Assembly: GCA_021432655.1 (NCBI GenBank)
Contig: MU271435.1
Location: forward strand, 13,414 to 66,198
Direction of reading: 5' to 3'
DNA length: 52,785 bases
Origin: Atractiella rhizophila
Lineage: Eukaryota
Both the position numbers and the translations under genes were made by a program. This document shows, in pieces, positions 21,396 to 35,676 of this stretch (positions within the stretch are counted from its first letter, which is position 1; every line of letters begins with the position of its first letter). Under the pieces are notes generated by a model. The model saw nothing but the letters and a program-made list of their open reading frames with translations. It made no database searches and was not told the DNA's origin.

Positions 21396-24300
21396 ATTTG
21401 TAAACAGTGCTCTGTGACTTGTGATTGTACAAAGTGGCGAAGTCTGAATCTGAGCAACCAGTAAGTTCTTCTCCTCCACTTTGGTAGACTATCTTCAAGT
21501 CTGAGGTGCCTCGCAGGTAACGAAAGATCCTCTTCACGGCCTTCCAGTGGTGCGACAAAGGCTTCTCACCGAATTGTGCAACTTGTGTGACAGTGAAAGT
21601 GATGTCCGGTCAAGGGCGACCATGAGGAAGAGCAGAGAGCCGATAGCTTCTCGTTAGCGACCAGTCCATGGCTCATTGATGTGACCTTCTTCGTCCTCGT
21701 CTGTCGCTGATTCTAACTGATTCTAAGTTCTGTCCAAGTTCAAAAAGGGTTGAAACTGGCTTGCAGTTTGCCATCCCAAACTTCTCCAGCAGGCGCTCAA
21801 CGTATGCTTTTTGGTCAATGGAGATTCTGTCGTCAGATTGGATGATGCAAATTCGGAGGAAATGATAAGCTCTCCCTTCATCTTTGAGTTTGTAATGTCT
21901 TCTAAGTTCTTCTTTGACCAGTGCAGCTCTTCGTCATTTTTGGCAAGGATAAGGAAGTCGTCGACATAGACTGCTACCAGTACGTATCTACCAGTCTTCT
22001 CATCCCTCTTCATGTAGATAGTTGATTCTGACTTGTATTATTTCAGGCCCATACTCTTCAACCTCTCATCTGCATCCCCATTCCAAACGTGACCACTCTG
22101 ATGAAGACCATACACCGCTTTTGTGACTTGAATAACCCAATCTGGGTGTTCGGGATCTTTCCAGCCAGGAGGAGGTCAAAGGTTCACAGGTTTGTTGAGT
22201 TTTCCATAGATATGCGGCTGAAATGTTGATCATGTGGACAGGCTACTTATTCTTCGCAGAGACGGATAGGATCAGGCGGAACGTCGGCATGGAGAGGACC
22301 AGGGAGGAGGTTTCCTCATAGGCGATCCCCTCGTGCTGTGTGAAGCCTTGGGCAATGACCCTTGCTCACAACCGGTGGTTTCTCCCTCTGGACCCAATTT
22401 CTCCTTCAATACCCCAACACGAACCAATCATATTCTCCCCCTCAGGCAACGGACCCATCTCCCCGACCTCTCTCTTTTTCCACAACCTTTTCTCCTCATC
22501 AAATGTATCCTGCCATTTGGACCATTGACAGCTTGTTCATAGGACAGAGTGAGGTTTCAGATGGGCAAGGCAATGGTGATGTGGCCTACAGCGTCAGAAA
22601 AGGTGAGTCCCCAAAATACTTCACTCATTTTTCTTTCTGAGCTTCTGCAGGAGAACGGTGTGCACACTGGGAGTGTTCATGAGGCTGAAGTGGGTCAGGT
22701 TTCACCTTCGACAGAACTTCAGTGTGTCTCTCCCCCCATTCTGTTCTTTTTCCTCTCTACCCTCTCTGACTGTTCTTTTGGAGCAGGAGGGTCCATCACT
22801 TCGTTCGTTTGAACTTCAAGAGGTTGTAGGAGAGATGCAGGGTAGGTCTTGTCAAGTTGAACGTGCAGGTGTTTGGTTACTGACCCATTCTTGCGATTGT
22901 AGATCCGATAAGTCTTGCTTTCCCAGTTATAACCAACCAACCTCCCTTCCCATGAACACGCATCAGGGTTCTGTCAGTTCGGTTCAGGCTGGATAAGGCT
23001 GTAAGTTTTGCACCCCAGCACTCGCAAGTGTTCAACTGACAGTTTCTTGCCAGTCTAGGCTTCAAATGGTGTCTTGCCATCAAGCGTGGATGTTGGACGA
23101 CGATTGATGATATGGATTGCTGCGACAGCGAGCTCTCCCCACAGCTTTTTGGGGATCTTGGAGGAATGGAGGGTGGAACGAATGAGAGCAGAAATAATGA
23201 GGTTGAGACGCTCCACGATGTCATTCTGTTGAGGAGTGTAAACAGCTATGTGTTCGTGTTTGATGCTGTGCAACGTCAGGTGCGTCTTGAACTCGTTGCT
23301 CGTATACTCTCCCCCGTTGTCAGATCTGATTGATTTGATCTTTAAGCCGGTTTCGAGTTCGACTTTCGCTTTGAAATCTTTGAAGGTGGAGAAGATATCG
23401 GATTTGTGCTTGAGAACTTAAATCCTCGACCTGTTGTCCATGAAGCTGACCCAGTAGTCAGCTCCACTGATCAGCTTCACAGGTGCAGGACCCCACACAT
23501 CAGTGTGGATGAGCTCAAGCTTCTCATTTGCACATTTCGTAGTCCTAAGGGGAAAGGGAGTTTGGATTGACGACTAAGGAGACATGCAGCACACGGTAAT
23601 CCTCCTCTCCCACTTCCATTCCTCTAACCATTTCTTTCTTTTGCAGCTCCTTGAGTCCGGCTAACCCCAGGTGGCCGAGCCTGCAATGCCAGACATGAGA
23701 GGAAGCTAGTTTCATGATTGTGTTTAGATTTGTGCTCCATTTGCATCCAGGAACAGTACTGATGCATCTAGTTTGTGTAGGCCTCCCTCTGCAACAATCT
23801 CTGCTACCACAGTTCCATCACGCTTCATGACTCTCCTTCGTTTGTCTGTAGAGAAGATGATGTCAAAGCCACGAGTGTTAAGTTTGTGGGTGGAGAGGAG
23901 CGCACAGCCGATCTCGGGGTTGAGGAGGACTTCTGTGAGTTCAATCTCTCTTTCAATTCCATTTACCCTTGTCAGGATTCTGACTGTTTCAATCCCAGTG
24001 GCCTTTGTGATGATGCCATGGGACGAGTAGAAGTGATGACTATGTGGGGAGAGCAAGGAAAACCAAAACCTGAATGGGACAATATGATCTGTGGCTGCAG
24101 AGTCGACATAGAGTCCCTCATGGTGCGTCCCATCTCCAGGGATCGTGTGGAAGGCTTCTGAGATTCTAGCTTCCCCAGGCTTCTCTTCTTCTTCCAGCTT
24201 CTTCTTTCAGAATCACTCTCCCAATGGCCTCGATACCACAATAGTGGCACTTCCCTCTCTTCTTCTCATCTTTTGACTTCACTTCATGGCTACTTCCACC

Positions 24301-24540
24301 AATAGACTTGGTAAAGTTCCTTCCGTTCCTCCAGGCTTTGCGACCAATGCTTCGCTAGGTTTGAAACCTGGGTTCCTTCGGTCTGCTTCAAGAAGGAGAT
24401 GAGATGTGACGTAGGAGGAGGTGAAATCAGAAGAGGAGACAGCATTGAAGGAGGAAATGACCTCAATCCAAGATGGCGGCAAGGAGATCAGAATGAGCAT
24501 CGCCATGTCCTCATCATCTGTTTTATCGCCCATCACCTTC
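21396..24540 (-). mobile_element. Ty1/copia element, 3' portion (gag end, protease, integrase, RT), decayed
   Basis: DDEDMAMLILISLPPSW, CHYCG..GHW, WHCRLGH, LIHTDVWGP, IRSDNGGEY, YTPQQN..VER, VAVYVDDFL, HWKAVKRIFRYLRGT; integrase before RT is the copia order. Confidence 0.92.
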
Positions 24541-24599
24541 TATGGAGGGACGTAGGGCTACGCTGTCATTTGCACATTTTTTTAGCACTCCGGCCATTG

Positions 24600-25500
24600 C
24601 TGCACCTGCCGAAAGGCCGCTGTCAATCTGTGAAAGTTGTCAACTTGTCGACTGCTTCAAGGATGCAGCTGGATGGAGCCCAAAGGGGCATCGCGGTTAA
24701 GATAAAAAGGTGTTCGCACTCTTGCTTATGTTTCTTATCGTGACGGCTTTTTCCTGTTTTCACCATGCTGTGTCTTGAACTGCAACACCCAACAAGTAGG
24801 TCCTTTTTATCGCTGGGTTTAGTATTCCTAACATGATTTTAATCTTCAGGTTCTTCAACCCACATTCTCACACTCGCTGAGGCTGCAGCATGCCTGACGA
24901 ACACCTTCCTTCTGCCCTTTCAGCCACCTCTGACTCCTCCTGCTGCCAACACAAAAGCCAAAAGAATAGGCATACGACAAGACTCCGAACCAAACGCATA
25001 CAGCCCGCCATGGGCCATCGGTGTCCCAAATTGATGGAACAGACAACTTGGGTCCTTCAATAGTCTTATGCTCCAACCCTGGAAGCCATGATGTTCAGGA
25101 AGGAATCGAGTAGGATGAAAGTGAATTGGGGAGTCCTTCGATATGACAGACTAGCAGGTGCTACGCCAAAACCGTATGTGCCCCGTTGCTCACCTTCAAT
25201 ACCAATCCCACAAAATTGACAAAACAGATCGCACGTAGTGAAGAGTCTGCTGGAAGTTATGCCGTGAACCATGTGAGCTCCTATGCCTATCTCCTACCAA
25301 TATCTGATCACAATATACTGAAATATCCGTGGACATTGTTGGGGTAGGTCCCTTTGCATTCTTACAGTCGAGATTATACAACTCGGCTAATGCCGCCTCA
25401 AAAGCAGAGCGAGGTTCTTTGCTGCCAGTCACCTTGGAATTGCAGGTAGGATGAGTGCCCTCCCTCTCATGATGGCTAACATGTCCTGCTGTAGCCACAA
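24600..25500 (-). pseudogene. Unrecognised gene remnant inside the DNA transposon
   Basis: Chain of coding-like minus-strand ORFs (EPRSAFEAALAELYNLDC, GIEGEQRGTYGFG, WDTDGPWRAVCVWFG, EHLFILTAMPLWAP); no family recognised. Confidence 0.3.
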
Positions 25501-25899
25501 GCGAGTTCGAGTACTATAGAAGACATTGTCAATGACGATATCGGCTGACTCTGCTTCCTATGGGGAGACTTTAAACAAAGAGTCTCTGTGTTACTGTATT
25601 TTAAAAGATAGAGACTGTAACCAATGCTTAGAATAATGTGGTCAAATACTTCATATTGCATCGTACGAATTACAACAGTTGAAGCAGGCAAGAGGAATTC
25701 AGATTTTGTTTCCAAATAATCTCAATAGGAATGGCAGGATGTAGGGTTGAGTTTAGCGAATAGTGAATCAATACCAACCACTAAGTATCTTCTCAATGGC
25801 TAAGTGTTTATCGCTGTGTCTTGAATGAGAAACTCCCTTTATGTTCTGTAAACGGTTGGGATACATTCAGTCAACCAAGATCTTAGACGGTCTTCATTT

Positions 25900-28106
25900 A
25901 CATTCTAAAACAAGGCCCCCTCTGTTCCACCTCTTCCTATGCTATCTATATCTTCAATGTCTTGAGATAGACTAGTTTCATCCCAAATCGCATTAATACC
26001 ATCATCCATAAGAAGAGCTTGACCGTCCGAGACACAGAAAACTACTCTGGCCAGGCTATCAATCTCACTTTTGTCGCCGGAGACGGGTTCATGTTGATCA
26101 CCACTGATGTGGTGTCCAGCGGTGTCAACAATTTCGAAGCATGGAAGAGTCTAGTTCGGGATTAAGAGAGAATCATCTGATAGATGCATTTTTCGAAAGC
26201 CCATCAAAGCAGGAATCTCCAATTTCTATGACAGAGTGAGATTCAGAATCTGTCTGGTGTAAGTAAGGGATCATGCTGACCTCAGTAGAAATTTCGAACA
26301 CTTGAGAATGAAACTCTGCTTCACTTTTAGACTAAACATCCTCCGCGATCTTGACACATATCTCGTCAAATATGCTGCCCAGAAATTGTCGATTGTGAGC
26401 TCGGATGGTTGAATATTCTGGGCTTTGCTGCAGTGGAGAACAACAGTCCATGTTCCTGTGGAATGAGGCCGAAAACTGGATGATCATGAGGAGAGACAAT
26501 GGCTTCCACTTCATTGATTTGCTCAGTCGAGACTTGAATCTAGCAGAAAATGTTAGATTCTGCCTATGGTAAAGAGACATGAACTAGGACAATACATACT
26601 GCATAGTCCTCTCCGTTGAACTTGCATGGCTCTCGAGCTATTGCATTTGGGTTGGCGCCTTGAGGGAGTTTCCGATTATGGTCATATCTCTTTGGGTAAT
26701 TGTTGAATAACTGGAACGCAGAGTAGTTCAGCTCTTTTTGAAGGAACAGAACAAACATGTAGCGGAAAACGAGGCTGATTCAAACTCATCACCAACTCAT
26801 ATAAGAGATATCGAAGAAAGAGGACAGACATGTCAAGCTGGGACCTTTTATCATACCAACCTCGGTCCACCCCGTCTTGCATCAAGTTTTCGTAAGTTGG
26901 GCTAAACTGTCGGCGCATCCCAGACCACCACTGTTCTGACTTGATATTCTTCTTGTCGGGACACCACCGATGGACGATGAGTTCAGGCAACTCGGGTTTC
27001 ACCATTCGATGCAGCAGGGTGTGGGCATTAGCAGGGCCATGGTTCTCGTTCCCAAAATCTGACTGAGTAACCCAAGGAGTTCCTGTAAATGGGGCATGAG
27101 ATTAATTTTAATGTGTAAGAAAAAACTAACTATTCCCATTATCTCGTACCGCATCGAGGTAGTACTTGCCAATCAATCGCGGATTTGAGTTCGTCCACTA
27201 AACTCGTGCCCACAGAACTCGTCCAGACCATCCATCCAGTCCAGCATGGAGCCAGATTCCAAATCTAGGCCCCCACTGGACGTAAATCAGTCAGCAGATT
27301 GTAGATTCAGTATAGTAACCCTGATATGCACCTTGTCATGTTGGTCAAATGCCCAATGGTCGTTGAGACCAGTTGCCCAGTATGTGTTACACTTGAATCC
27401 ACTGATGCCATGCCTACGAGCACTCCATCCAGGATCATACTCCTTATTGTATTGGTTCGCAAGTGTGCTTCATTTGCTGAATGATTAGTTTGTTGTCATG
27501 AGAGAACTGATGAGAATGCATACAAGGTTGTTGCAATTCTTTGAAGCTTTAGATGTGCTCTCAAATGACTTTGCCAGCAGTGGGATAACACTTTTTTGAT
27601 GTTGTCGGCAACTGCCTTGAAACTTTCCGCACTTTTGAACTTTCCACCCCTAAAACTTTGACACCCTAAGAGACCTCTCCATTTTTTCATACTACCCAAC
27701 CTGCTCATCGTTTCAGAAAAGAAACAATGTTTTGATTAGAGCTACATAAATAACATGTGTCACTGTCCGTTCACCTTTCTCGCACAAACCACAATTGACT
27801 TTTGCCAGAATCTGCTGTTGGGTTTCTTCAGTCCTACATGCCCCTACAAGGAGTTCTTTAAACGGCAGAGCTTTGTGAATCCAGTTAGCAAGAGCCTGGT
27901 TGAAGAGAGTGGAATCCCTATACAGATTTCCGTGTTGATTGACCATGGTGACATGATAGCCTGATCTTTCTGATACACTCTAACCTGAAATATAAGGGAC
28001 CTGTGAAGCAATACAAACTGCTGCCTCTCCTGCATGGAATCGATTACAATTTGCTGTAACGATAGTTCACGTTCATCTGTTTTTGAAATGGTTTGTTTCT
28101 TCTCAT
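25900..28106 (-). pseudogene. Integrase-core-type DDE transposase, intron-containing, with a nonsense mutation
   Basis: YWATGLNDHWAFDQHDK|WGPRFGIWLHAGLDGWSGRVLWARV*WTNSNPRLIGKYYLDAV, VTQSDFGNENHG.ANAHT, KKNIKSEQWWS, FLQKELN, RKLPQG..P; putative D 27344-27346, D 27057-27059, E 26934-26936; TGG>TAG at 27198-27200; 3' end approximate. Confidence 0.85.
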
Positions 28107-28248
28107 TTTAACGGCTTCTTTAACTACATTGAAATTTCTACGTCTATCCGCTGAGTGTGCTATATAGACACGTCCTTTGCACACTTCCTTTATTTTCACC
28201 TTTTAGAACTAAACCTCAGCATCATTTACACTCCATGAATCCACTCGC

Positions 28249-30686
28249 ATGCCACCACCTCCTCCTGAAATAATTGCCACAGAAGATGAAGGGGGCATGG
28301 GCTTCTGTACAAGTGGTCGAAAAATTGAAGGGCGTGGTTGCCCAGCCAGTCTAACCGCTGTTCCAATCGGTTCAATGAAGGTTGTTTTGAAGCGTACTAA
28401 AGAGGTCGGAACAATCGAATGCCGCGTCTGCCACTCCTGCTTTGCTTACTATGAAAACAAATCAACAGTTTATGCCTTACTGGTGTGTTCTTTTGTTTCT
28501 TAGTTGTATGATTTATCACTAAGAGTTTTCTTCTCACCCCTAGGAGCTCAAACCAATCAGAAAGTAGTGGCTCACAATCACACGAGAGCGGGAGCAGAAT
28601 GGATGGCAGGATAAGCAATAACAGAAGAAATCAGCACACCAGTATGTAATTTGTGTTCATCCAATCCTTAATTTCTCCCACTATCACCATCCTTTGAAGC
28701 CGGATGTACTTTTACTTCTGCTAAAGTTTCAGTGGCTGCATGTGCCGAAACTTGCAATGCGTTCCCGATTTATTTTGTTATTCCATGACAGCATCTCAAG
28801 GTTTGCTTGCATCACACTACTATGTGTCCTCGTCGGAATCTGTGCAGGCTACACTCCTTCCTGTGCCTGAAGTTAAGCCTCTGCGTTCATCGGACTCACT
28901 TCATTTTGCTGGAGCTTTGTCGAAGATTGCTCAGGAAAATTTTGCAAGGAGGACTGCTGGTTTGTTTTCTCTTCATTTCTTTCTTACATCCAGTGCCAAC
29001 AGATTGCACAACCTACAGGACTTGTGGCTGTCCAATCTCGACATGCCATTCCATCACACATCAGCACTCAGTTTTCTGTCCAAACCTCCGGTACTCGTTC
29101 TGTTCACTCCCATGTCCATGTGAACCGAGAGACAGTTAAAAGAAAGAAGGCCAGAAATGCCAATACCCTCTACCCAACACCTGCACATTGGCTGTACTCC
29201 CTTCAAGTTGCCGTTCAACATCGCACCGGGAAGTCTCTCACCTGGGCTACCACAGCTCAGCTATTGATATTGACGTACCGAATGACTCTGGCGATCTGAA
29301 GCCATCTGAAATTTTTGATGAGGTTTTCGAGCTCTCCAGGAAATCTGGCCATATTCTGCCTCCCCACTGATCTGATCCCAGTTGGAACTTCGCACAACAG
29401 ACAAACAAGACGTCTTCACCAAGATCAAACAGCTTATGGACCTTGCTCCAAGACGACTGCTGGTCCTAAGGATGGTGTTGCAATTGAGTTGTTTCTCATC
29501 ATGAGTTTGCAAAGTTGGGAAAATGTAACAGAGGGAAAGGATATGGACGATGATGACAGCCCTTGTAAACCTGGAAAGCGTTCGAGGATCAGCTTTCCAG
29601 ATCACAGTAGCATGGCTATCGAAGACAGCAGAACCGAATACCTTACCCACCAATCTGGCATCAACTCCGCTGCGCAATCCAGTCAACCTGTTTCATTTCG
29701 ATCCCTTTATTCCTTGCCACTCACCACTAGTCAGGCAGCTCCTCCAATTTCTCATTCTCATTCTTTTGATCATGCCAACACTGTCTTTTCTGCCTCCTCT
29801 TCTCCGCTCCCGGATACATCTAATATTTGCACTTCATTGACACCATTATTTGGAGCTGAGGAGCGACTGACGTTCAGGCATCCCCAACATTCCTCGATTA
29901 TGCAGTACCTCTCACCGAAAATGACTACATCAGTCCAGTCTTGAACCTTCAACCACAGCTTCATCAAGCAGTTAACTCGAATGGCACACATCAGCCAGCG
30001 TTCACTTCACCTTGTTGCCTCTTGATGTAGAAGTCACATGTCTTCTCCCTCTCCCTCTTGTACAGCTCGTCGAATTTGCTTTGCAATCTGGCGAACCATC
30101 TCTCCACAATCTTCCTTCTATCGAATCCCACGGCCGTTTGGTAGTTTTTCACAATCATGAACTGGGTCGGGGGACGTTTCGAGTAGCATATCGAGGTGTC
30201 TTTACGTTTGAGAGAGATGGAAAAAGTTTGGAAAGTTGATGTTGTGGTGAAGAAGATGTAGTGGAGGATGACTCTGGTAACACTTGAGCCCTGCCACCTA
30301 CTGAAGAACGAGAGCGAATCATTGCGGATGCTGTCAATCTCCATTGGGCAGATTCTCTCCTAGAAAAAAGCCAGAACTATTTCAAAATGGCTGCTCAGGA
30401 ATGCTCTCCACCGCTTGACCTTCAGGAGGTTGCAACCTTTTCATTTGTCAAAGGAGCGATTATTCTCATGTTTCACCTCTTTATTCTCAATCTAATACAG
30501 TACAATAGGAAACGCTTCGGTGTTGGGAACCTGCCTAAGACAGCTGAACAGTTTCTCGAACAGCATAAGTGTTCAAGCAATCCCTATTGCAATGGTTTGG
30601 GAATGCTGGATCGACTGGCGATTACATGCAGCAACTGCGGCTGTGCGGTTGGCTTTTGTTATATTCTGCTCTCGTATTTAGTATGA
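28249..30686 (+). pseudogene. Alpha-kinase (eEF2K/MHCK-type atypical kinase) gene with Cys-rich N-terminus, decayed
   Basis: ELGRGTFRVAYRG (~30159-30197), VVVKK, and the C-terminal signature FGVGNL....QFLEQHKC..NPYCNGLG (30516-30602); N-terminal CTSG...GC...ECRVCHSC; central catalytic part appears deleted; stops present. Confidence 0.72.
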
Positions 30687-30699
30687 GGCTTTGTTGTAC

Positions 30700-31660
30700 T
30701 AAGAAGAGATGCACCTGCAGGTCATTACATTTTAGCAATTTGAGGGTCGCTGGAATATCAACTTGACCTAACAGCATCAAGTCGGATACAAAGGAGGCGA
30801 AGAACACAAGTACTTAAGTCAACATTGGTTCGGATTGTCCCTTCCAACATATCAGCCAGCTTATGCTTGTGGTTTTCAGGAGCTTCCGTAGTAGCCTTTA
30901 AACATGTTCATCATCTTTAATATCGAAAATGAAGGATCAGATGACAGACCTGATGCGAGATTAAGCTAAACCAGAGGTCATTACAGAGCCGTGCGACCTC
31001 TGCACGTGTGACTTCCATCACAAGTTTGAGGGGGCATATGATGCTCTCCATCTTGGCAAGTTGTGTGAAATTAGCGAGGAGGGAGAGAAGGTATTCAATG
31101 TTTCCGGTTTCACTCCAATTGCTCAGTACGAGCTTCCAGGGATGACTGCCAACAAGATCTTGAAACCACCATCCACAGTTGTTGTGAGAGGCATCTGGTG
31201 GGAACTCCGCTTGTTCCAGAGCATATCGAAGGGCTGTGGCCCTCTGGCTGAGTTCTTGCATTGGGAAACCTTCATGCCTGTCTTCCACCAAGCGAAAGAA
31301 TGATTTGGTAAGTGATGGATAGAATTCTAAGACCTCAGGGAGTACTATTGATGAGGTGATGGCGGCTTATATGCTTACAGGCTAATTCGGCTACTGCAGC
31401 TTGAGGGTTGGTATTTTAGTAAGAGACAGCAAAGGAGAACAGGCATACTGGTTGGCTTGACCATGACCTGTGTCACTCGATTTAGAATGGGAGGAGGCGA
31501 GGATAATGGCAAATTTGCAGGAGTATCGTCAATAATATCATCAATCACTGGGGGTACGGAGGGTACTGATCTCGTGCTGTATTCCTCCCAGCTAACGTCA
31601 GCAATGAAGTCCTTATCTTCAATTTGGTCCAATACTATCACAACTACACTTGTTTGCACG
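30700..31660 (-). pseudogene. Unrecognised gene remnant inside the DNA transposon, convergent with the alpha-kinase
   Basis: ORFs 31375-31659 and 30917-31291 with protein-like composition (LSQRATALRYALEQAEFP...WFQDLVGSHPWKL). Confidence 0.4.
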
Positions 31661-32049
31661 GCATAGAGTGAGAATCTTTGTTATTTCTGCACAAAGTCGG
31701 ACTCAATTTTGTTTCAGGTCATACGAAGGCATGTGAGTGCCCGCAAATAACATGGAGAGCAATTGAGCACGACTCTGATTGCTCTCCCTTTTAGTTTTCT
31801 TTGTCTTTTGGCTTATACCCGTGCTCTGCTGCTAATCAAAGAGTTTTTTCAGTCCTTCTGTAGCAGAGTATACAATGCTTAGAAATAAATATAAATCCAA
31901 TTCCAGATCCTTGAGTACACATTACACTCATTCTAGTTCCAAGCGAACTTCTACTTCCCCTCACCGAAGCATATGCTGCTGTTTCCGATGCTCTCCACAC
32001 CTGCACACTGTGATTATGGGAGAGTCTCTATATTATTGCATTCTATGTT

Positions 32050-33450
32050 CAATTATCCAATTGTAAATACTATCGAACTCTGGAATCACATGATGAACAA
32101 CAAATCTGTGTCGATTGGATGACAAGCCAAAAGCTGAGGTTTCTGACTATAATTCTCCTTGAGTTCCTCCGTGATTGTTTTAAGCAATTGCGAGTAGCTC
32201 TGTTGGGGATACTTGGTCAAACTGCATGAATGCTTAACTGTTCCCCCGTTGAGCGTCGTGAGAAAGAATGAGCTGTGCGAACGCGAACCTCATAGATCCA
32301 GTAGCCTCTCCTTGAACCTGGTATCTGCGCTAGTCTGATCGTCCCTGCAACCGCTGAACATGATCACCTTTCACACCTGTCAACCACAGCTTTCGTTTAG
32401 GGGGGGGGGACATGCCTCAGCAAGAGAAGTATTGTTTTTGATTGTTACCTCGTGCCCTGTATCCGCCTTCTCTGCCATCTGGGTAATCTACTTCGTAGTC
32501 TCTAAAGCCCCTCTTCGTCACCAGCAAGATAGCTCTTTAGAGCCTCCATGGCTCCACCTCCTGTTTGATCCAGGACACGACCGTAGGGTTTTTTGATCTT
32601 GCCCTCAGTAGCATACATATACAGTAGGTTGAGGCAGAACCAGAGTGACAGCAGTCGAAGAGCCTGCTAGAATCTTAAGCAGGTTGGCCTGGGAACATAT
32701 TTAGGACGATGCATTCGCAGTAAGACGACATCCAGCAGGAAGTAGTCTAACAAGCAGGTCGTGAATCATGTCGTCGACGATTGCCCCTCTTCGATGGAGT
32801 CAACAGGACAAATGGTCTCATCAGCACCTGAGACCAGAATCGTGAGGCTACGGTCTATCACGTTAGAATGAGATGAGAACGAACCATCCTGCTAGTCACC
32901 GTCCCCTGCGCCACCACCCTCGCCGAGAACTTGACCTCCATGCCCAGAATAATGAAATACCAGACTGTCGTTCCGCTGAGCAGCTGCAACCAACAACCAA
33001 CAACAAAATAAACGAAAGCCCAAGAGGGGCCAAAAACAGGTTCAAAACCAAGAAAAAAACCTCTCCAAGAAGGCCAAAAATTCCCTCCGCCAAGGGTTAA
33101 CCAAGAAGAACAAAAAGGCAACCGCCTTCAAAACCGAACCCAAAAACAAAAAACCAAACCCCCCAAAAGTAAAAAACAGCCGAAGCCCCAAAATAAACAA
33201 ACCTTTCAAGGTTTCGGCATCATTCCAACATCCGCACAACTCAGCCTTTGTTCCCACATAGTCAGTGCTAGCGCAAACTGCCTGGCATCTCCTTCACCGT
33301 CTATCCCAATCAACCCACTGCTCATCGATCCAGGTCCACTACTTCTCACTTCCTCTTCTTCAATCTCGACAACGATCTGTTCGGCGCGGCACATCGATTC
33401 CTCCGCGCTAGTTACAGATGGCAGTAAGTAGCTCCCATTCATCATTCTCA
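32050..33450 (-). pseudogene. Possible further gene remnant near the right TIR
   Basis: Coding-like pieces (AEQIVVEIEEEE...ARQFALALTMWEQRL; VVSWIKQEVEPW...RDYEVDYPDG) interrupted by an A/C-rich patch. Confidence 0.3.
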
Positions 33451-33642
33451 GTCGATGTGATGGGAGCGACGGCAGATGGCGGAGGCAAGGAGATTGTCGT
33501 AAGTTTTGAGGTTGATGGATAGCTTTAGAGTGGTCCTGGCTGAGAGGGCAGAGGCAAGGCAAGCGAAAAGCTGGTGAAACCCCGGCTGAATCTTTGGTTG
33601 AGCAGTGGCTGTCAGATCAGCATAGCCCTATGTCCCTTTATA

Positions 33643-34445
33643 ACCTTCAGTTTCTGTCCTGTCATACAGATTCAGTTAACGTGGTCATGCATGGATCTGC
33701 CCTTAGCGTAGCGGGAAGTGTAAAGCTCCTGACAAAGAAGTACTCGTGCCTGACGATCTTGAGTTGGCACAGCTCCTTGAGCTTGTCCCAGACTTCTTTT
33801 GGCTTTTCAATGTCGATCTCTCGGATGTTGGTGAGTACATGATCTTTACAGGCATCGATGATGATTGAGTACACTAGGTTCGCTCACCTTGGCCAATCCT
33901 TCTGCATTGCCACCACCTTAGCGACATCCTCCGCCTTTGCAACCCTTCCACAATGGCAACAGGTTTGACATCCATTCCAGCAAGATCCCCATCAATTCTT
34001 GTCAAGCAGCTTCGCCTTGACATGGAAGTACCAGAAATGGTAGTTCTCCCGTCCCTCGAGTTTTGGGATAGTCGAAGAAGTAATGATGGAGGTGTCATGG
34101 CTTTCTGACATTCTGGACTGACAAGGTGGTAGGGATTTGGCTAGATGAGAACAAGCTCGTGCTACCAATTGATTGAGATTACGAGTGCGTAGCACGTACG
34201 AGACTGCAAGGGGTGAGACCAAAATAAGCAGTATTAATATTGTAGTATATACGTGATAAATCAAATACATTACCTGCAAGGTGTGAGACCAAAATAAGTG
34301 GTGGGTCTCACAATTGCAGGGCAATTCTTCTTATAGCAAAGAGAGCTGAATAATAAGAAAGTGCAAGCAACAGTGAAAGAAAGGCTTAAGGCATACCAAA
34401 CGTGATGGAAGGAGGAGGTGCAAGTGCTCCTGTGGCCCCATCAAC
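33643..34445 (-). mobile_element. Ty1/copia element, 5' portion: LTR (34170-34445), PBS and gag N-terminus
   Basis: PBS tggtagcacgag (34156-34167, minus); IPKLEGRENYHFW; PKEVWDKLKELC; joins 24540 in frame across the ACCTTC TSD. Confidence 0.85.
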
Positions 34446-35676
34446 CATGATCCGGTGAAAACTAAAATGCTCAATTATTTCCTGACAACCTCTTGAGGGA
34501 TATTAAAAACCTTTGTTATCAACATAATATTGTAATAAACCTCAAAAGAGGTTTATGGGCATTGCCCCAAGAGATTTCTTAAATAATATGTTATTAACCT
34601 TAATTTACTAGTAAAAAACCAATTTGCTTGTAAAAAAAAAGCTCTTATGAAGTTACGAGCGACCTGTAAGTCTCAAAATCTTATGTTATTCAATGGTAGC
34701 AAATCGTAAATTAGGGAATCTTTCATATAAACATGTTCTCCGCCTCCTTCTGTTTGTCCCATCCAACATTATCTGCCTTCTTCTCCACCTTCAACGATCC
34801 TTTCATCGCCTTCCTCTCGTCCTTTGCATCTCCTTTCATGAATTTCACGAGTTCCTCATTCCCCAAATCCACCAACTTCTCCACCTCCCACTCCAATTGA
34901 GTTGCTCTGGAATGCTTTTCAAAGCATTGTCCTCCTCAGTTGGCTCTAGCTCCTTCTCGATCCGCTCAAGAACACTCAAATCTTTCTCATCCTTCTCCAA
35001 ATGCTTTCTAGTGACAACTGGCATTCTTTTCATACTGCTTTTGCCGGATCTCACTTAATCTCTGTTAGGGCTGACACTATGTGCAGTCGCCGATGGGCGA
35101 TACGTCTGTAGTGGAGATAAACCTAAGGGCATGATATGACATGAAGACTAACCTGTAGTGGAGATAAACCTAAGAGAATACTCTGAGGTCACCTCCACTA
35201 CTCTCTGATCTATGTATACAAGCGGAATAACACTGCCACAGAGTGTAGAGGAGAGCAGATGAAACATGTAAGAGAACTAAAAGGGGGAAGTGACAGTGGG
35301 ATTACGCGGAGTTAATAAGAGGAGAATAGACACAAATGGGCTAAGTGGTGATGCAGGCGCAAATGGGCGAATGGGAGACGCAGAGTGGCGACCGGAGGTG
35401 CAGAGTGGTGACGGGAGAACGGGCGCCGATTTGCATAAGATGCAAACCTGACAATACCCCCCAGTTTCTGTGGTGCTTGCTGCAGGCAGAAACTTCTGCT
35501 TCGTGAAGTTTGCCAATTTACAAAAATGCCGAAAGTGCCAGCTGCTTCTCGAACAGAGATGAAGATGTCGGAGTAAAGAGACATTGTATACCTCGTAATT
35601 TGAGGAATTTTTTCGAAGTTGACCAAGTGTTGTTTTTTGGTGTAATAAGTGCCCATCCTGCGAAAACGGGCTGGAC

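Follow-up and report, generated by a model that had tools for sequence, protein, structure and literature searches.

The closest described systems are the IS3EU DNA transposons, a superfamily with 45 families in Repbase whose members have TA..TA termini and usually a 6-bp target site duplication (TSD), whereas the TSDs of IS481EU are of about 4, 15 or 25 bp; the two are not separated in published trees (Kojima 2023, PMC10045372). In rust fungi (Pucciniales), IS3EU elements are described with a 6-bp TSD, TAYGG..CCRTA ends and an oppositely oriented transposase and alpha-kinase, and the TET-positive ones with terminal inverted repeats (TIRs) longer than 30 bp and a TET/JBP gene between the other two (Kojima 2025, PMC12730594). 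In that paper the alpha-kinase architecture takes up two sentences and concerns TET-positive rust families alone. The alpha-kinase family itself has grown strongly in rusts and is missing from Microbotryomycetes, with counts of 79 and 39 in two columns of one table (PMC4469406). Within the literature searched, the sole link between an alpha-kinase and a transposase in fungi is one sentence of the 2025 paper, and no claim was found that transposons conserve this kinase as one of their genes or that it accounts for such expansions; the supplements of PMC12730594 lay outside this search and may list more families. The element described here occupies 9102 bp (24541–33642) of a 52,785-nt stretch of DNA from Atractiella rhizophila (Pucciniomycotina), referred to below as the window, whose numbering is used for all positions. 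It is best explained, with a probability of roughly 0.85, as an old, inactivated IS3EU cut-and-paste transposon lying in the gag gene of a copia element, with an alpha-kinase that is a resident member of a two-gene core. The first-pass annotation of the window had tentatively taken this architecture to be undescribed, which is not upheld: the 2025 paper has the same termini, TSD and opposed transposase and alpha-kinase (PMC12730594), and by the annotation's own refuting condition the architecture counts as described. The window contributes a TET-negative, pseudogenised member of this known kind in Atractiellomycetes, and what is added beyond it comes from 80 metagenomic relatives.

The 9102 bp are a single insertion bounded by TIRs and flanked on both sides by a perfect TSD (ACCTTC, 6/6 bp), which is the duplication length of IS3EU. 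The TIRs are identical at 21 of 25 positions, and the four mismatches (GG>AA, G>A and C>T) are transitions only. The 20-nt pattern of the TIR core occurs at exactly two sites in the window, both at the termini, where 0.01 would be expected by chance, and the TA..TA termini of IS3EU are kept, with the right end reading ..TTATA. The element has no repeats in common with other parts of the window. The empty site was recovered from public reads of two runs, which hold 87–89% of the element's sampled words and from which contigs were placed on 23001–35200 at a likeness of at least 80%. In both runs, a 531-nt contig joins 24535 to 33644 and omits 9108 bases (9102 + 6); it is about 90% like the flanks, differs from them at 51 positions and has a depth of 383/508, compared with 89/134 for the single-copy contigs of the locus. 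Because this contig skips 9108 bases at high depth, paralogous copies of the copia element in the same genome retain the empty site, and because it skips the element together with one TSD copy, the 9102 bp entered as one unit. The IS3EU-type element with a 6-bp TSD proposed by the first-pass annotation is thus upheld by the ends, the duplication and the empty site. Its argument for a single unit had been an in-frame rejoining of the copia gag. The single unit stands, on the evidence of the empty site, and the two gag halves are collinear across the insertion in PF14223 profile order, but the rejoined frame holds for just the last 7 codons before the junction. The frame change, about 20 nt upstream of the junction (33650–33671), is the copia element's own decay and is independent of the insertion.

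The gene on the reverse strand of the element is a pseudogene of an integrase-type transposase. Alignment of relatives by tblastn supports exons at 27463–27332, 27275–c.27130, 27086–26800, 26773–26594 and 26533–26414, with a canonical GT-AG intron at 27331–27276. The catalytic D, D and E are present in retained DQHDK, TQSDFG and NIKSE motifs, which align with columns of our alignment A2 in which D158 and S216 are invariant and D217 and E259 nearly so. Despite these motifs the gene is broken, because an in-frame TAG (27200–27198) stands at the place of the first W in the conserved VWWTN motif of the relatives. HMMER (phmmer) searches with P0001, the public A. rhizophila gene model for the locus and the single match of the window in a word-index search, returned 184 proteins at E ≤ 1e-3, with alignments confined to residues 7–287, one tandem-repeat artefact excepted. 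Pfam PF24764 (rva_4, 'integrase core domain') is found in 55 of 149 among the P0001 matches listed (E ≤ 1e-3) and in 26 of the 28 full-length transposase homologues (E ≤ 0.01). The structure predicted for one relative of the transposase (predicted local distance difference test, pLDDT, 81.9) matches the folds of TnsB, IstA, MuA, ISCth4 and retroviral integrases; 17 PDB entries match it at E ≤ 1e-3. A profile of alignment A2 searched against PDB sequences gave a best E of 0.14, to HTLV (human T-lymphotropic virus) integrase cores, which is not significant. Intron, exons, DDE motifs and rva_4 homologues together bear out the intron-containing integrase-core transposase of the first-pass annotation.

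The P0001 model itself (24858–27979, reverse strand; hypothetical protein BT69DRAFT_1299713, 510 aa) bypasses the TAG stop by splicing and appends 3' exons that lack homologue support; what the annotation lists as a host protein is a transposon pseudogene. Two candidate homologues were rejected. The RING-repeat protein P0015 (1177 aa) matches the 3' part of P0001 by artefact, since a single weak similarity over 37 residues (24% identity) is counted again in each of about 20 identical repeats, and P0120, with 9 matched stretches, was dismissed in the same way on its Pfam scan alone. A 117-aa partial transposase on another A. rhizophila contig (P0002) is 60% identical by tblastn and 64% by phmmer, and shows that the genome holds at least one further IS3EU lineage.

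The second gene, an alpha-kinase remnant on the forward strand, lies head to head with the transposase in the same TIR-bounded unit, with a few hundred bases between the two. An N-terminal CxxC zinc-ribbon-like motif (28420–28473) is common to this remnant and to the kinase proteins of two metagenomic relatives described below (L002 and L036), and kinase-domain homology covers 30300–30464 and 30510–30593. Two hidden Markov models (HMMs) were built for its recognition. The first, from P0003 and 25 homologues, was scanned against 200-aa chunks (n = 1050) and gave an E of 4.7e-5 at the sole significant alpha-kinase site in the window; the second, from 22 transposon-borne kinases, gave 1.5e-6, compared with 0.31 for the next-best window chunk and 0.2 for the reversed control. 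The tblastx comparison of the window with the kinase of L028 gave an E of 5.6e-5. For the kinase ORF (open reading frame) at 30288–30683, a word-index homology search scored 0 of 205 candidates, and recognition in the ESM Atlas was below threshold, with no usable matches. Further tblastn matches at 12.8–17.7 kb on the reverse strand (E 0.005–0.25) were discarded, since the HMMs gave E > 3 there and the region is Ty3/gypsy.

The kinase gene is interrupted by two TGA stops (30237–30239 and 30285–30287), and about 92 profile positions (105–196) are missing between the two stretches of homology, including LLEE, QH.QY, SDYQG and TDPQ. SDYQG and TDPQ, which are motifs of the catalytic core by their roles in TRPM7 and MHCK, are both lost, and the window kinase is without a catalytic core. 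Because of the nonsense codon in the transposase and the two nonsense codons and lost core of the kinase, the window copy is dead, an old and inactivated element. The observed/expected ratio of CpG is 0.59 within the element, compared with 0.86–0.89 at the gene-bearing ends of the window, and TpG/CpA is in excess. This pattern agrees with the transition-only differences between the TIRs and fits methylation-linked C>T decay.

Support for the kinase as a resident of the element comes from its relatives. Metagenomes scanned with an alignment of 20 transposase proteins yielded 80 loci, and the kinase HMM matches 27 of these. The kinase is present in 18 of the 21 loci whose flank upstream of the transposase measures 3.5 kb or more and in all six with both flanks of at least 3.5 kb, compared with 4/50 where both flanks are shorter than 2.5 kb. 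The two genes are divergent, as in the window, at 19 of the 27 kinase loci, with a spacing of 2288–3159 nt in 17 of the 19. Five loci are complete elements with both genes (L002, L008, L036, L050 and L066; 5.9–9.3 kb), bounded by TAYGG TIRs (27–30 of 30 positions matching) and 6/6 TSDs; four have the divergent pair at window-like spacing and the fifth has the genes in tandem. Three of these (L002, L008 and L066) are minimal two-gene elements of 5.9–6.4 kb, and L036 and L050 have one TIR in common and different TSDs. Pfam calls Alpha_kinase (PF02816) in L002 and L066 and rva_4 in L036, and no third Pfam domain was found in the 44 ORFs scanned out of 70 of at least 100 aa in the five elements. 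Among annotated proteins, P0003 from Arthromyces matolae, the best full-length transposase homologue, is a fused rva_4 and Alpha_kinase gene model, and transposase fragments begin 4 of 26 alpha-kinase proteins (from Arthromyces, Crassisporium, Lyophyllum and Mycena maculata).

The distances of the two proteins also vary together, with a Mantel r of 0.935 over 231 pairs and of 0.806 over 15 family representatives; 0 of 2000 permutations reach either value. The ratio of nonsynonymous to synonymous substitution rates (dN/dS) of the kinase is 0.21–0.36 in three independent, moderately diverged comparisons, with 0.27–0.71 for the transposase; near-identical copies give a dN/dS of about 1 or no estimate. 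In the relatives the kinase lies inside the same TIR/TSD units, its divergence keeps pace with that of the transposase, and purifying selection acts on it. It therefore behaves like an accessory gene resident in the lineage, not like a host gene captured by the window copy. The first-pass annotation was therefore right to place the kinase in the unit and not in a nested insertion, while its label of 'cargo' does not suit a resident second gene. Its idea of a mobile spread of alpha-kinases in basidiomycetes gains support from the same relatives. The features of the window element are collected in Table 1.

Table 1. Features of the transposon and of the copia gag that it interrupts, in window positions
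Feature	Position	Strand	Basis or remark
Host copia gag, downstream part	24282..24539	-	PF14223 profile positions 114-168, E 4e-6
Left TSD copy, ACCTTC	24535..24540	.	sequence; empty-site contig skips 9108 = 9102 + 6
Left TIR, starts TATGG	24541..24565	+	21/25 match with right end
DNA without assigned gene, beyond the 3' end of the transposase	24566..26413	.	holds the extra exons of P0001, without homologue; no Pfam family
Integrase-type (Pfam rva_4-like) DDE transposase pseudogene	26414..27979	-	homologue alignments
Alpha-kinase gene remnant, divergent from the transposase	28213..30683 (start approximate)	+	custom HMMs, tblastx
Right-hand 2.9 kb without assigned gene	30684..33617	.	ORFs 30920-31366(-) and 31378-31680(-), no detectable family
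Right TIR, reverse complement starts TATAA	33618..33642	-	equals TATGG with two G>A changes
Right TSD copy, ACCTTC	33643..33648	.	sequence; empty-site contig
Host copia gag, upstream part	33665..33883	-	PF14223 profile positions 41-89, E 0.011

Several further features of the metagenomic loci were recorded. The TIR/TSD calls of L028, L037, L049, L067 and L069 were dropped, as their TIRs reach the contig ends or come without a TSD; in L028, L049, L067 and L069 the two contig ends themselves form long, near-perfect inverted repeats that lack a TSD and may be very long TIRs or assembly fold-backs. Repeated subterminal motifs (TACAGTAGAAAGTCAC...), inverted at both ends, lie inside the TIRs of L036 (1557–1650 and 9255–9285) and L050 (1077–1145 and 9970–10038) and may be transposase-binding sites. 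In L018 and L054, gaps of just 74 nt and 3 nt separate the kinase domain from a truncated transposase match (profile start 120 and 131), and both look like internally deleted copies.

A number of observations weigh against the interpretation of the window element as an IS3EU transposon with a resident kinase. At the termini, the right end has been altered by two transitions and no longer reads CCRTA, and the TIRs fall short of the more than 30 bp of the TET-positive rust families, as 25 bp align and nothing beyond; blastn of both 400-nt element ends found no longer TIR and no subterminal repeats. The TIR length may have been shortened by decay. At the level of the genes, the Pfam models for Alpha_kinase (PF02816), rva_4 and rve match neither P0001 nor any of the 107 window ORFs even at E ≤ 10, and both assignments for the window copy are putative in that they derive from homologues and purpose-built HMMs. 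The IS3EU placement is set by published descriptions, with indirect support from the rva_4 domains of homologues, the integrase/TnsB/IstA-like fold and the IS3EU-type ends of relatives. Among the relatives, gene order varies (5 convergent and 3 tandem loci), and three loci (L070–L072) have 4.2–9.8 kb of upstream flank and no kinase. These three belong to one transposase family; L070 and L071 each have an upstream flank of 9.8 kb, L072 has one of 4.2 kb, and they may represent a kinase-less branch or carry the kinase beyond their short 1.8-kb downstream flank. The distance correlation could be partly due to shared host history. Within the genome, the reads hold no second copy of the core at a likeness of at least 80%, the diverged fragment P0002 being the one paralogue seen, so that the mobility of this exact family in Atractiella is putative. 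Finally, about 4.8 kb of the element are without explanation.

These 4.8 kb (24566–26413 and 30684–33617) could hold further decayed cargo genes such as a TET/JBP dioxygenase. The element is 2.7–3.2 kb longer than L002, L008 and L066, ORFs of 100–149 aa exist in it (e.g. 30920–31366, reverse strand), and TET/JBP genes are documented in IS3EU (PMC12730594). The first-pass annotation had counted about three unrecognised gene remnants in the element. The searches give no such indication, as none of the 107 ORFs of at least 45 aa shows a Pfam family at E ≤ 0.1, the ESM Atlas returned no usable matches for 30920–31366, and outside the two genes no homologues of the element ORFs were found by phmmer, in the Atlas or by tblastx against the 80 relatives, two short low-complexity matches at 33212–33353 excepted. 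The five complete relatives are likewise free of a third domain in the ORFs scanned. For TET/JBP in particular, the rust gene sits between the other two (PMC12730594), where here there are only a few hundred bases, and the Pfam scan found none between transposase and kinase; the window element is TET-negative. Read depth suggests another content. The segment 26257–30326 is single-copy, represented by one 4721-nt contig with 0 differences, while 25443–26256 and 30327–33582 are present 2–7 times in the genome, at 2–3 times the single-copy depth for the former and 159–603 against 89 for the right-hand region, and one contig is about 89% like the element at 32417–32803. Nested or shared repeats are thus the more likely content of the extra DNA, and further cargo genes are unlikely. 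Two contig joints at single-copy depth were also seen, one from 30625 to 31570 on opposite strands and one from 25131 to 31885 that skips 6753 bases and inserts 6 letters, its shorter side being only 24 nt long; they may mark rearranged partial copies elsewhere or be chance matches.

Membership of a different integrase-like superfamily, be it Ginger1, Ginger2, IS481EU or one not yet described, is very unlikely. Such a placement would draw on the descriptive nature of the likeness to IS3EU, on the silence of Pfam about the window protein and on the inseparability of IS3EU and IS481EU in published trees (PMC10045372). It conflicts with the combination of a 6-bp TSD and TA..TA ends, which is that of IS3EU and not of IS481EU (PMC10045372), with the filing of TAYGG termini and an oppositely oriented alpha-kinase under IS3EU (PMC12730594), and with five relatives that have TAYGG ends and 6-bp TSDs.

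That the kinase is incidental cargo without a lasting tie to the transposase, either a captured host gene or a nested insertion bounded by ends of its own, is scarcely credible and already largely refuted: the C-terminal part of the kinase and all DNA to its right are repeated elsewhere while the transposase is single-copy, a contig break (30491) lies near the kinase deletion and gene order differs among relatives, but the pair recurs within TIR/TSD units in all five complete relatives and in most well-flanked loci, its distances co-vary (r 0.81–0.94), the kinase dN/dS is low, and the window kinase is not flanked by repeats, either inverted or direct.

For the IS3EU transposon with a two-gene core, a mechanism can be proposed in outline. 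By analogy with the family, the integrase-type DDE transposase would bind the TAYGG-type TIRs and excise the element, and a 6-bp staggered cut at the target followed by repair would give the ACCTTC duplication. The core consists of the transposase head to head with a protein of about 700 residues, in which a zinc-ribbon-like motif stands at the N-terminus and an alpha-kinase domain at the C-terminus. Tentatively, the kinase might serve the element in trans, its substrate being the transposase or else a host factor of chromatin, repair or silencing. To our knowledge, no kinase with a role in transposition or anti-silencing is known for any DDE transposon. For the loci covered here, the evidence supports the kinase as a co-evolving core gene that is probably behind the patchy alpha-kinase expansions. 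The broader proposition, that it is the obligate co-evolving kinase of a Basidiomycota-wide IS3EU lineage, that the expansions are largely transposon copy number and that the kinase, with its N-terminal zinc ribbon, serves in transposition or against silencing, stands at about even odds.

The locus itself is of little import, being a dead transposon inside another dead transposon. Its value lies in what it indicates about annotation and about the lineage. P0001 and the fused rva_4/Alpha_kinase models of Arthromyces, Crassisporium, Lyophyllum and Mycena belong to transposons but are entered as hypothetical proteins of the host, and such entries inflate fungal kinome counts. A kinase kept with a DDE transposase through 27–65% protein divergence and under purifying selection suggests that it assists transposition or the evasion of host silencing, and offers a testable account of the abundance of alpha-kinases in certain basidiomycete lineages and their absence from others.

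The surroundings of the element are rich in other transposons. The interrupted copia element also holds Pol_BBD (23727–24206) and rve (23058–23417), both on the reverse strand, and the whole is nested among transposons (window 8000–43000) flanked by host genes. Ty3/gypsy pieces include RT_RNaseH (9054), RVT_1 (13484), SH3_Tf2-1 (15302, and 36155 on the reverse strand) and gag (18918, reverse strand), and several families of repeats resembling long terminal repeats are present (D1–D3, e.g. 12049/20262 and 35066/40823). The host genes are an aminotransferase and GalT at the left end (0.5–3.4 kb) and Sdh_cyt, a TPP enzyme and an epoxide hydrolase at the right end (46.7–51.4 kb).

Of the known systems, the rust IS3EU elements with TET/JBP (e.g. 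IS3EU-7_PSt and IS3EU-3_PCor) are nearest and are like the window element in their 6-bp TSD, TAYGG..CCRTA-type termini, opposite orientation of transposase and alpha-kinase and Pucciniomycotina host (PMC12730594). The window element differs from them in having no TET/JBP gene and its two genes directly adjacent, in a detectable TIR of 25 bp, where theirs exceeds 30 bp, in its host (Atractiellomycetes), in being pseudogenised and in its single-copy core. The IS3EU/GingerRoot elements of Repbase, likened here by description only, have in common with it the TA..TA termini, the usual 6-bp TSD and an IS3/IS481/integrase-type DDE transposase in which the first catalytic D lies 100–300 residues from the N-terminus and there is no HHCC zinc finger; no second gene is mentioned for them in the 2023 paper, where 'kinase' has 0 occurrences (PMC10045372). 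The five complete metagenomic relatives resemble the window element in their TAYGG TIRs, perfect 6-bp TSD, alpha-kinase with an N-terminal zinc-ribbon-like motif and, in 4/5, divergent gene order, and differ in transposases that are 56–66% different from that of the window and in genes that look intact, with long ORFs and all recognised kinase motifs, whereas the window copy is decayed. PIF/Harbinger elements are two-gene transposons that encode a transposase and a Myb-like DNA-binding protein. They form an unrelated superfamily whose second gene encodes a DNA-binding protein and not a kinase, but they are alike in being a DDE transposon lineage that keeps a co-evolving second gene.

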